Shown piece by piece: positions 29,558 through 38,564 of a stretch of 51,502 nucleotides of DNA. The position numbers and the translations under genes were made by a program. The notes beneath the pieces were generated by a model that saw only the letters and a program-made list of their open reading frames with translations, was not told the origin of the DNA and searched no databases. This DNA comes from Escherichia coli (GTDB lineage Bacteria; Pseudomonadota; Gammaproteobacteria; Enterobacterales; Enterobacteriaceae). The stretch lies in assembly GCF_003334255.1 (NCBI RefSeq), contig NZ_QOWU01000037.1. One strand, 5' to 3'. Every line of letters begins with the position of its first letter. The stretch's first letter is position 1.

Positions 29558-29847
29558 ACCCCTACCCTCCCCCAAACCATCAACACCCGCTTCATCGCGG
29601 CACTCTGGCGACACTCCTTAAAAATCAGGTTAGTGCTCACCTTTCCTTCCCGTTCTTCCCTGGTAGCGAATCTGTAATACACCGTTCGCCAGACCTTACC
29701 ATCTATGACCAAGATTCCTGCCCGCGCCATTTTAGCCGCAGCCTGATTTATGCTGGTTACTGTTGCGCCTGTTACCGCGGCAACGTCCAGCGCACAGAAG
29801 CTCTTATGCGTCCCCAGGTAATAAATAATTGCCTCTTTACCCGTCAT
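29554..29847 (-). CDS. ren: Ren protein (lambda Ren-like)
   Basis: MTGKEAIIYYLGTHKSFCALDVAAVTGATVTSINQAAAKMARAG... near-identical to lambda Ren. Confidence 0.85.
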   Translation of the reverse strand: MTGKEAIIYYLGTHKSFCALDVAAVTGATVTSINQAAAKMARAGILVIDGKVWRTVYYRFATREEREGKVSTNLIFKECRQSAAMKRVLMVWGRVGV

Positions 29848-30545
29848 ACACTTGCTCCTTTCAGCCCAAACTTAGCTTTGATTTCTGCGATCTTCGCCAG
29901 AGCCTGTGCACGATTTAGAGGTCTACCGCCCATAACAGGAAGTTGTTTTACTGGTTCAGGTATCGTCTCACCACGGTTAATTCGCGCTGTCATACAGGTC
30001 AGTTCATCGGCAGCCTTGCGCCGTAATTCCGCGTCAGTCAGCGCATTGGCCCGCATGTTCTGGTACAAGTTGGTAACCAACCAGTAATGCGCGTTCGATT
30101 TCCACGGATAAGACTCTGCATCCGGATACAGGCCACGCTTCCGGCAATACTCGTAAACCATATCAACCAGCTCGCTGACGTTTGGCAGCCCGGCGTTAAC
30201 AGATGCTTCTTCCCGGCACCAGGCGACAAACTGCCCGGGTGATGGCAGGAATGGTCGATTCTGCCGACGGGCTACGCGCATTCCAGCGTTAACCTGTTCC
30301 ATTGTGGTGATCCCGTTTTCCCGGAAAGCCAGAACCCACTGGCGACGGATTTCGTTCAGTTCATTCTGGTCACGGTTAGCCAGGCTCGCCGGGAAAGTTG
30401 CCAGTAACTGGCTGAACACACCGTTGATGATCTGCGCTACCTGCTGTACCTGTGGCTTTTCGTCGTACTGTTCCGGCATGTTGTTGGCGATCCGGCGCAT
30501 CTGCTCACAGTCAAAGTTAACCATCTGTGCGGCGATGTTTTTCAT
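29844..30545 (-). CDS. P: Replication protein P (DnaB helicase loader)
   Basis: 233 aa, MKNIAAQMVNFDCEQMRRIANNMPEQYDEK... near-identical to lambda P. Confidence 0.95.
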   Translation of the reverse strand: MKNIAAQMVNFDCEQMRRIANNMPEQYDEKPQVQQVAQIINGVFSQLLATFPASLANRDQNELNEIRRQWVLAFRENGITTMEQVNAGMRVARRQNRPFLPSPGQFVAWCREEASVNAGLPNVSELVDMVYEYCRKRGLYPDAESYPWKSNAHYWLVTNLYQNMRANALTDAELRRKAADELTCMTARINRGETIPEPVKQLPVMGGRPLNRAQALAKIAEIKAKFGLKGASV

Positions 30546-31471
30546 AGCTCCACCCCGTAAATCCAGTCAGTGTTCGTCAGGTCGAGTTTTGGTTTGCCGG
30601 CTGTCACGCCAGCCTGTTGCTTGTTTCGGTTGATTTCGAGCTGGGTCCACTTGTCGCGGAGTTTGGCCGGACTTAGCACGTTACCGGACCAGAAGTTGTC
30701 CTGGCATGCCCAGCGGAACAGCACGCACATGTCGCGGTGGTTACGTCCGTCACGTTCACGCATCAGGCGGATATCGTTAGCCCACCCAGCAAAATTCGGT
30801 TTTCTGGCTGATGGCGCGATGGTCTTCACCATGTCAAACATCCACTCTGCGGCGGTCAGGTCTTCTGCTGTCCCCCACTTGCTGCCGCTCTGAATTGCAG
30901 CATCTGGTTTCACCACAGGAAGATCGTTTTCTGGTTGGTCAGAGGATTCGCCAGAATTCTCGGACGAAAAAGGTTTTATATTGTCTTTTGTTAGTTTGTC
31001 TTTTGTGTTTACCTGATTCGGGTAAACGCCTTTACCTGATTTGGGTAAACTTTTTTTACCTGATTCAGGTAAATTTACCTCTTTCAGGTAAACTTTATTT
31101 TTCTTACCTGATTCGGGTAATGTTGACCATTCACTGACCACATTATTAATGCCGGTATTCCGCCCGCTCTGAATAAAAATCCCACGCTTTACCAGAACAC
31201 TTTTTGCAGCAGAACACTTGTGCGGCAATATCCCGGTTAATTCGGAAAGTTGCTCGTTGCTAACCCAATCCAGTTTTTTATTAAAGCCATATGTTTTGCG
31301 CATGACAGCCAGAAAGACCAGAAGCTGGTGCTGTGTTAATCCGGCCAGCATCACAGCTTCCAGCAACTCATTTGCAATGCGCGTATAACCATCATCGAGA
31401 TCTGCCACGCGCGGCTCCTTTTGTGCCGCATCCGGCACTGGAAAATTGAATATCTCAGCAGTGTTTGCCAT
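30542..31471 (-). CDS. O: Replication initiator O
   Basis: C-terminal half near-identical to lambda O; start placed at ATG 31471 (MANTAEIF) with ggagg SD; iterons internal. Confidence 0.85.
   Translation of the reverse strand: MANTAEIFNFPVPDAAQKEPRVADLDDGYTRIANELLEAVMLAGLTQHQLLVFLAVMRKTYGFNKKLDWVSNEQLSELTGILPHKCSAAKSVLVKRGIFIQSGRNTGINNVVSEWSTLPESGKKNKVYLKEVNLPESGKKSLPKSGKGVYPNQVNTKDKLTKDNIKPFSSENSGESSDQPENDLPVVKPDAAIQSGSKWGTAEDLTAAEWMFDMVKTIAPSARKPNFAGWANDIRLMRERDGRNHRDMCVLFRWACQDNFWSGNVLSPAKLRDKWTQLEINRNKQQAGVTAGKPKLDLTNTDWIYGVEL
31008..31120. repeat. ori iterons (5 x ~19 bp, O-binding sites) with adjacent AT-rich region 30960..31007
   Basis: ttacctgattcgggtaaac and four variants in tandem inside O coding sequence. 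Confidence 0.75.
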
Positions 31472-31557
31472 AATTCCTCCCGCAATGAGTGTGTTACGAT
31501 TTGCACCTGAAAGTCGGTTCTGTTCCAGCAGACCGGCTTTCGCCATTTCTGAACCTG

Positions 31558-32097
31558 TCATATCGCCCCCAGCATGGTAGTAACCATCGCCATCAATGGA
31601 CCAGCCAGATCTGGGTCCACACGAAACATCGACACAATACCTTCACTAATTTCCTTCAGTTTCTGGTGGCGTGGTGCGTTGAGAATGACAGCCTGTTTTG
31701 CCTCACTGAGTTCCTTTTCCATTTCAGCCAACCTAGCCATGAAGCTATCCTGCTCAACCAGGTAACCGCGATATTCCAGCGGTAGTACCGCCAGAATTGC
31801 CGGGGTCAGTTCACGCACGTTATTTCGGTATTTTTCAGAATCGAATTTGTTATCGAGGAAGCGGAACAGCTTCTGGCGTGCACGGCTGACATCATCAGGG
31901 AAATCGATGGTGCCGCCGCCCTGCTCCCGATACTCATTCACAATGAGTGTGGCAACGACATCCTGATTATCTACAGCCGACCAGGCGCGGACGGCATCAC
32001 GGATTTTTTCGTGGCCTGGCACCTGTTTTGTTTGAGAACGATTTATCACCGCAGTCGGGCTAAATCCGCTAGTCTGTTGGTATGTAAGTGGTTGCAT
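31558..32097 (-). CDS. YdaT-family protein (CII-position regulator)
   Basis: 179 aa; motifs NEYREQGGG and LTPAILAVLPLEYR resemble Rac YdaT by recall. Confidence 0.6.
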   Translation of the reverse strand: MQPLTYQQTSGFSPTAVINRSQTKQVPGHEKIRDAVRAWSAVDNQDVVATLIVNEYREQGGGTIDFPDDVSRARQKLFRFLDNKFDSEKYRNNVRELTPAILAVLPLEYRGYLVEQDSFMARLAEMEKELSEAKQAVILNAPRHQKLKEISEGIVSMFRVDPDLAGPLMAMVTTMLGAI

Positions 32098-38488: not shown

Positions 38489-38564
38489 TGGTGCCGATAA
38501 TAGGAGTCGAACCTACGACCTTCGCATTACGAATGCGCTGCTCTACCAACTGAGCTATATCGGC
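38489..38564 (-). tRNA. thrW: tRNA-Thr (anticodon CGU), thrW-like; prophage attachment site
   Basis: Reverse complement GCCGATATAGCTCAGTTGGTAGAGCAGCGCATTCGTAATGCGAAGGTCGTAGGTTCGACTCCTATTATCGGCACCA folds as cloverleaf. Confidence 0.9.

Follow-up and report, generated by a model that had tools for sequence, protein, structure and literature searches.

Gene O of this Escherichia coli prophage contains what is very probably (we would put it at about nine chances in ten) a replication origin of the lambda (O/P) type, but one whose initiator and iterons have a specificity other than lambda's: five O-binding iterons, then an AT-rich stretch, acting, presumably, by a lambda-like mechanism. The sequence features that mark out lambda-type origins are all present: an initiator of the Phage_rep_O family, palindromic iterons inside its gene, an AT-rich stretch, and a lambda-type C-terminal domain in O with gene P downstream. 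That O binds these iterons, and that initiation depends on O and P, we infer from homology and from the way in which the iterons and the O N-domain vary together. The origin is a routine mosaic replication module, and a widespread member of the lambda-type family. Its interest lies in its being a clean natural case of a textbook rule, that the N-terminal domain of O and the iterons travel as one lambdoid specificity module. The AT-rich stretch, the C-terminus of O and the helicase loader belong to the other module, and the recombination joint lies inside the origin itself. The specificity type, moreover, is uncharacterized, and much commoner among E. coli prophages than lambda's own.

The iteron array

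The window—the whole 51.5-kb stretch of DNA analysed—holds five copies of an imperfect palindrome, TTACC-N7-GGTAA, each 17–19 bp long with a 17-bp core, between positions 31009 and 31120 (Table 1). When the motif is searched for with up to three mismatches, eight strand-hits are found in the window, all of them within the five iterons. Shuffled sequence is expected to yield 0.07 hits, and none of 100 shuffles reached eight. Tandem Repeats Finder calls the same array; an Rfam search gave no match in the origin region. A first-pass annotation of this DNA had proposed five iterons here, inside the coding sequence of O and one more than in lambda, and this proved accurate in each respect, the annotated iterons of lambda being four. 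It had also described the AT-rich stretch as following the iterons. This holds in the orientation of the gene, which is on the minus strand—a point the annotation left unsaid—and in that orientation only: the array runs from 31120 to 31009, and the AT-rich stretch comes directly after the last iteron.

Table 1. Positions in the window of the origin elements and of genes O and P (sequences of iterons in the sense of gene O)
Feature	Position	Strand	Sequence	Remarks
Iteron 1	31104..31120	-	TTACCCGAATCAGGTAA	Frame 0, encodes LPESGK
Iteron 2	31075..31091	-	TTACCTGAAAGAGGTAA	Frame 2, encodes vYLKEVn; counterpart by position, lambda ITN1
Iteron 3	31056..31072	-	TTACCTGAATCAGGTAA	Frame 0, encodes LPESGK; counterpart by position, lambda ITN2
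Iteron 4	31032..31048	-	TTACCCAAATCAGGTAA	Frame 0, encodes LPKSGK; counterpart by position, lambda ITN3
Iteron 5	31009..31025	-	TTACCCGAATCAGGTAA	Frame 2, encodes vYPNQVn; counterpart by position, lambda ITN4; adjoins the AT-rich stretch
AT-rich stretch	30966..31008	-	ACACAAAAGACAAACTAACAAAAGACAATATAAAACCTTTTTC	Presumed DNA-unwinding element; 43 bp, 26% GC against 51% for the window
Gene O	30542..31471	-		309 aa + stop; N-terminal Phage_rep_O domain of non-lambda specificity, ori-encoded linker, lambda-type C-terminal half
Gene P	29844..30545	-		233 aa; DnaB helicase loader of lambda type (97% identity with lambda P)

Read in the sense of O, iterons 1 to 5 are spaced by 29, 19, 24 and 23 bp. 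They occupy the middle of the gene, codons ~118–155, which code for the linker between the initiator's two domains. Iterons 1 and 5 have the same 17-bp core, and in the E. coli type the half-sites of iteron 1 are perfect. Half-sites and spacing alike are invariant across the E. coli phages and the ~79%-identical Klebsiella phages (for iteron 1 of the Klebsiella type, see below).

An array inside a gene is also a stretch of protein, and three of the five units are translated as LP(E/K)SGK. The repeats might thus be viewed as a peptide repeat in the flexible linker of O, with no function at the level of DNA. The other two units, however, are in another frame, where they read VYLKEVN and VYPNQVN (the frames run 0, 2, 0, 0, 2), and three of the spacings (29, 19 and 23 bp) are not divisible by three. 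Inverted symmetry, present in every unit, is something that a peptide repeat would not call for, and the array is placed as it is in the experimentally defined origin of lambda. We rejected the peptide-repeat reading, which seems to us very improbable indeed, on the grounds that the units are palindromic and occur in two reading frames. Dyad symmetry and two reading frames together mean, therefore, that the repeat is maintained as DNA.

A joint inside the origin

By its domain content O is a homologue of lambda O: it matches Pfam Phage_rep_O (PF04492) at aa 21–115 with E = 1.6e-33, and PHROG 277, 'replication initiation O-like', with E = 1.6e-163. A sequence search of the PDB with O found no match. 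The resemblance to lambda is very unevenly spread. In BLASTP alignments, residues ~1–165—the N-terminal half and the linker—share about 45% identity with lambda O, and residues 167–309 about 98%, with two or three differences. Nucleotide identity, measured in sliding fashion, is 27–63% upstream of window position 31009 and 87–100% from about 30990 on through the O C-terminal region, P and ren. This step in identity places the mosaic joint where the last iteron gives way to the AT-rich stretch. To judge from the sequence, the joint divides a specificity module, made up of the O N-domain and the iterons, from a lambda-type module made up of the AT-rich stretch, the O C-domain and P.

In general plan the origin is that of lambda (and of phage 434, which is the same). 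There, too, it lies in mid-gene O and consists of palindromic iterons, of ~18 bp, with an AT-rich region after them, and the genes come in the order cII-O-P-ren. The iterons themselves differ: lambda's are TCCCTC-N5-GAGGGA, whereas those of the window are TTACC-N7-GGTAA. The lambda/434 specificity is defined by four iterons of consensus TCCCTCAAAACGAGGGA, to which lambda O binds, and no iteron of this type is present at the window origin. In direct alignment ITN1–4 of lambda, spaced by 20, 24 and 23 bp, fall onto iterons 2–5 of the window, spaced by 19, 24 and 23. Iteron 1 is thus the extra unit. It stands at the end of the array farther from the AT-rich stretch, 29 bp upstream of its neighbour, opposite lambda sequence that is not iteron, and it accounts for a 10-aa insertion, O having 309 aa here and 299 aa in lambda. 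The sequence of the iterons has changed together with the N-terminal domain of O, as a replication-specificity swap would have it. The first-pass annotation had called it just that, having noted an N-terminal half foreign to lambda joined to a lambda-like C-terminal half, and on both points we agree with it.

The AT-rich stretch is identical to that of lambda at 33 of its 43 positions. Its CACAAAAGACAA...ACAAAAGACAAT motif is found after the iterons in P22, in SEN34 and in Klebsiella phages as well, and the AT-rich element is common to specificity modules that are otherwise different.

Related origins and the extra iteron

Origins of this general kind are already on record with four iterons in lambda, four in P22, six of another kind in phage L, and six in the Stx phages (PMC7466680, PMC8022706). 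The Stx-converting phages (933W, P27, H-19B) likewise have extra iterons at the end of the array remote from the AT-rich stretch, and in them P and the C-terminus of O resemble lambda's. Their six iterons are of lambda type, however, two extra units where the window origin has one, and these iterons and the O N-domain are close to lambda's own, with few amino-acid changes. The N-terminal part of the window O has only 47–49% amino acid identity to that of Stx O, and belongs to a different specificity type.

The nearest characterized initiator N-domain is that of P22 gp18, at 55% aa identity over residues 19–158. P22 also has related TTACC...GGTAAA repeats in its annotated origin, a similar AT-rich motif, and an origin within the initiator gene (gene 18). 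It differs in having four repeats, with a shorter separation of 5–6 nt between half-sites, and in the other half of the initiator: the C-terminus of gp18 is unrelated, and its partner is a DnaB-type helicase, gp12, rather than lambda P (PMC8022706). Phage phi80 shares the architecture (its origin is in gene 15), and the cII-like gene upstream of O in the window is of phi80 type (66% aa), but phi80 has four annotated gp15 sites of TTCCCGAAAACGGGAA type, and gp15 is 42% identical overall, C-terminal half included. Identity with the lambda/434, phi80, P22 and Stx-phage origin types was ruled out by direct comparison.

The Klebsiella phages GZ7, ST11-VIM1phi8.2 and KO-TP1, and the prophage of E. 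coli KFu024, have the same type of O N-domain (~79% aa/nt) and five iterons with identical spacing. In GZ7, ST11-VIM1phi8.2 and KFu024 this is joined to a different O C-terminus and to a helicase loader of the DnaC/AAA type; in KO-TP1 the annotation of the gene downstream reads putative replication protein P. Salmonella phage SEN34 (L005, about 1890–1960) has yet a third type of iteron, TTAGC-N7-GCTAA, in three to four copies, followed as in the window by an AT-rich motif, CACAAAAGACAAACTAACAAAAGACAATAT, and here O C-terminus and P are lambda-like. In Escherichia phage D2 (L006, OM475427.1, 1411–2432) O is chimeric inside its N-terminal domain: 246 nt of window type come first, and what follows is of lambda type, with lambda iterons. 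The D2 record gives O as two CDSs, which signifies either a broken hybrid or a sequencing error.

Near-identical origins are abundant. The 482 nt that comprise the origin and the N-terminal part of O are 100% identical in two isolated, plaque-forming phages, PhiR34_1 and PhiR68_2, and 97.7–98.5% identical in 13 further coliphage records (4C10, 4A7, 1W, 3W, Perceval, Turner and IdasGreatGrand among them), 15 deposited coliphages in all. Of 5,426 complete E. coli genomes, no fewer than 2,417 (about 45%) carry this type of origin, counted with a 361-nt origin probe covered over at least 80% of its length, and relatives are encoded on at least 588 IMG/VR contigs. The origin could thus be marked in the annotation of thousands of prophages. 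The first-pass annotation had reckoned that the feature would be merely routine if it matched a well-known origin type, in count or in sequence. This was largely borne out: both recur in many phages and in thousands of prophages, but the type is not that of lambda/434, phi80, P22 or the Stx phages. A literature search, to which the classical comparisons of 1979 were out of reach, found no paper with the iteron sequence of the window or with a five-iteron lambdoid origin. When the phage collection was searched at 95% identity or more, no record of a phage 82 origin was matched. The O protein of phage 82 combines an N-terminus of its own with a C-terminus compatible with lambda, so the window origin may be of the phage 82 type.

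In 76 of the 80 closest IMG/VR loci the array again numbers exactly five units, spaced as here, a constancy that carries little independent weight because most of these close relatives are nearly identical. The other four, together with one E. coli prophage, make up five copy-number variants: L012 (E. coli DETEC-P836), and L014, L038, L071 and L090 (IMG/VR). Among them are arrays of 4, 4, 7 and 1 units, which arose by deletions of 23 bp, 24 bp and more, and by a 43-bp duplication, between repeats. O is frameshifted and truncated in four of the five—three of those from IMG/VR and the E. coli prophage—and the remaining one has an in-frame 24-bp deletion. In L012, O is an annotated frameshifted pseudogene beside IS elements. 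Because O is out of frame and truncated in four variants of five, the number of iterons is constrained by the reading frame that overlaps them.

Decayed relatives of this sort (L012, L014, L071 and L090), with iterons lost or duplicated and O out of frame, raise the question of whether the window origin is itself a relic in a decaying prophage, no longer able to fire; there is an IS element at the window's end, too. We consider this improbable. O, P, ren and the cII-like, cro-like and cI-like genes of the window are all intact open reading frames, and the origin is the one found, without a single difference over 482 nt, in the plaque-forming phages PhiR34_1 and PhiR68_2.

If the window origin does fire as lambda's does, events would run as follows. 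Dimers of O would bind the iterons by way of the N-terminal Phage_rep_O domain, as homology with lambda suggests (PMC7466680, PMC3985674), and the bound O would assemble into an O-some, bending the DNA and wrapping it. With the DNA negatively supercoiled and transcribed rightward, the adjacent AT-rich stretch would open. The lambda-like C-terminal half of O would recruit the P-DnaB complex, and host chaperones would release DnaB, whereupon theta replication would start; each of these steps, too, is modeled on lambda. Iteron 1, for its part, is most likely to serve as an accessory site for the binding of O, like the extra upstream iterons of the Stx phages. How much it contributes is uncertain, because in the Klebsiella-type relatives iteron 1 is degenerate, with a right half-site of GGTAC and an altered centre.

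It is conceivable, though we lean against it, that the working O-some forms on iterons 2–5 alone, and that iteron 1 is a tolerated duplication, kept mainly as coding sequence for O and with little or no role in initiation. Iterons 2–5 reproduce the lambda spacing closely enough, iteron 1 is the least conserved of the five across genera, and since four of the five known changes in iteron number break the frame, coding constraint alone could keep the unit in place. On the other hand, iteron 1 of the E. coli type has flawless half-sites and the very core of iteron 5, and its 29-bp offset has been kept across E. coli and Klebsiella phages alike. The Stx phages speak to both sides: of their six iterons, the four by the AT-rich region are bound efficiently and the two extra ones weakly (PMC7466680), but the weakly bound ones are still needed for efficient replication (PMC7466680, PMC3985674).

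An accessory site at iteron 1 is the reading we prefer, and it invites a larger proposal, which we offer as speculation and would not ourselves wager on: that the lambdoid origin type most widespread in E. coli, which about 45% of complete genomes carry, has five iterons and an initiator specificity never characterized, and that its conserved extra iteron, upstream of the rest, might give rise to an O-some unlike lambda's in stoichiometry or geometry. Were this so, the altered O-some would affect regulation in ways comparable with what has been reported for the Stx phages and their six iterons.

The early region and its prophage

Where O begins deserves comment. The longest open reading frame starts upstream, at ATG 31561 (339 aa), and is the choice of the ORF finder and of several GenBank relatives. 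The real start is most likely ATG 31471 (MANTAEIFNF...), which is preceded by a Shine-Dalgarno sequence, GGGAGGA, and corresponds in alignment to the points where lambda O, phi80 gp15 and the O genes of the Klebsiella phages begin. We favour the 309-aa form because of these homologous starts, the Shine-Dalgarno sequence, and the antisense promoter and hairpin in 31472–31561 (-). In several GenBank records, the start codon of O looks 30 codons too early.

The promoter in question is sigma-70-like, TTGAAT-17-CATAAT with TG. It overlaps the O start codon on the plus strand, antisense to O, within 31446–31541, at the place where lambda has pO. A strong hairpin (31509–31541) comes after it, in the interval that separates O from the cII-like gene, and the whole 81-nt stretch that includes the hairpin folds at -24.1 kcal/mol (z = -2.4). 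Promoter and hairpin together look like an antisense RNA unit of the oop/M3 type. The unit has no T-run terminator, and an Rfam search of it gave no match.

The early-right operon is on the minus strand and comprises the cro-like gene, the phi80-type cII-like gene, O, P and ren, with the cI-like repressor gene divergent; the start of P overlaps the stop of O (ATGA). The cII-like gene (31558–32097, -) codes for 179 aa of PHROG 163, 66% identical to the 180-aa cII-like protein of phi80, and is not of the 97-aa lambda CII type.

The prophage in the window is no siphovirus of the lambda kind: in it, head and contractile-tail genes like those of SfV, SfII and SfIV are joined to a lambdoid early region. 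The morphogenesis genes (window 1–25000) are 97–98% identical to those of the Shigella serotype-converting phages SfIV, SfII, SfI and SfV, whose tails are sheathed. At about 37580 the similarity to phage records comes to an end. A tRNA-Thr(CGT) gene lies at 38489–38564 (-), and because it is about 0.9 kb beyond that end we regard it as a candidate attachment site. Near the window's end, at 50966–51082 (+), Rfam identifies, at 121 bits, an ALIL pseudoknot, which is the element responsible for frameshifting in transposases of the IS3 family; the IS element at this end is outside the prophage.
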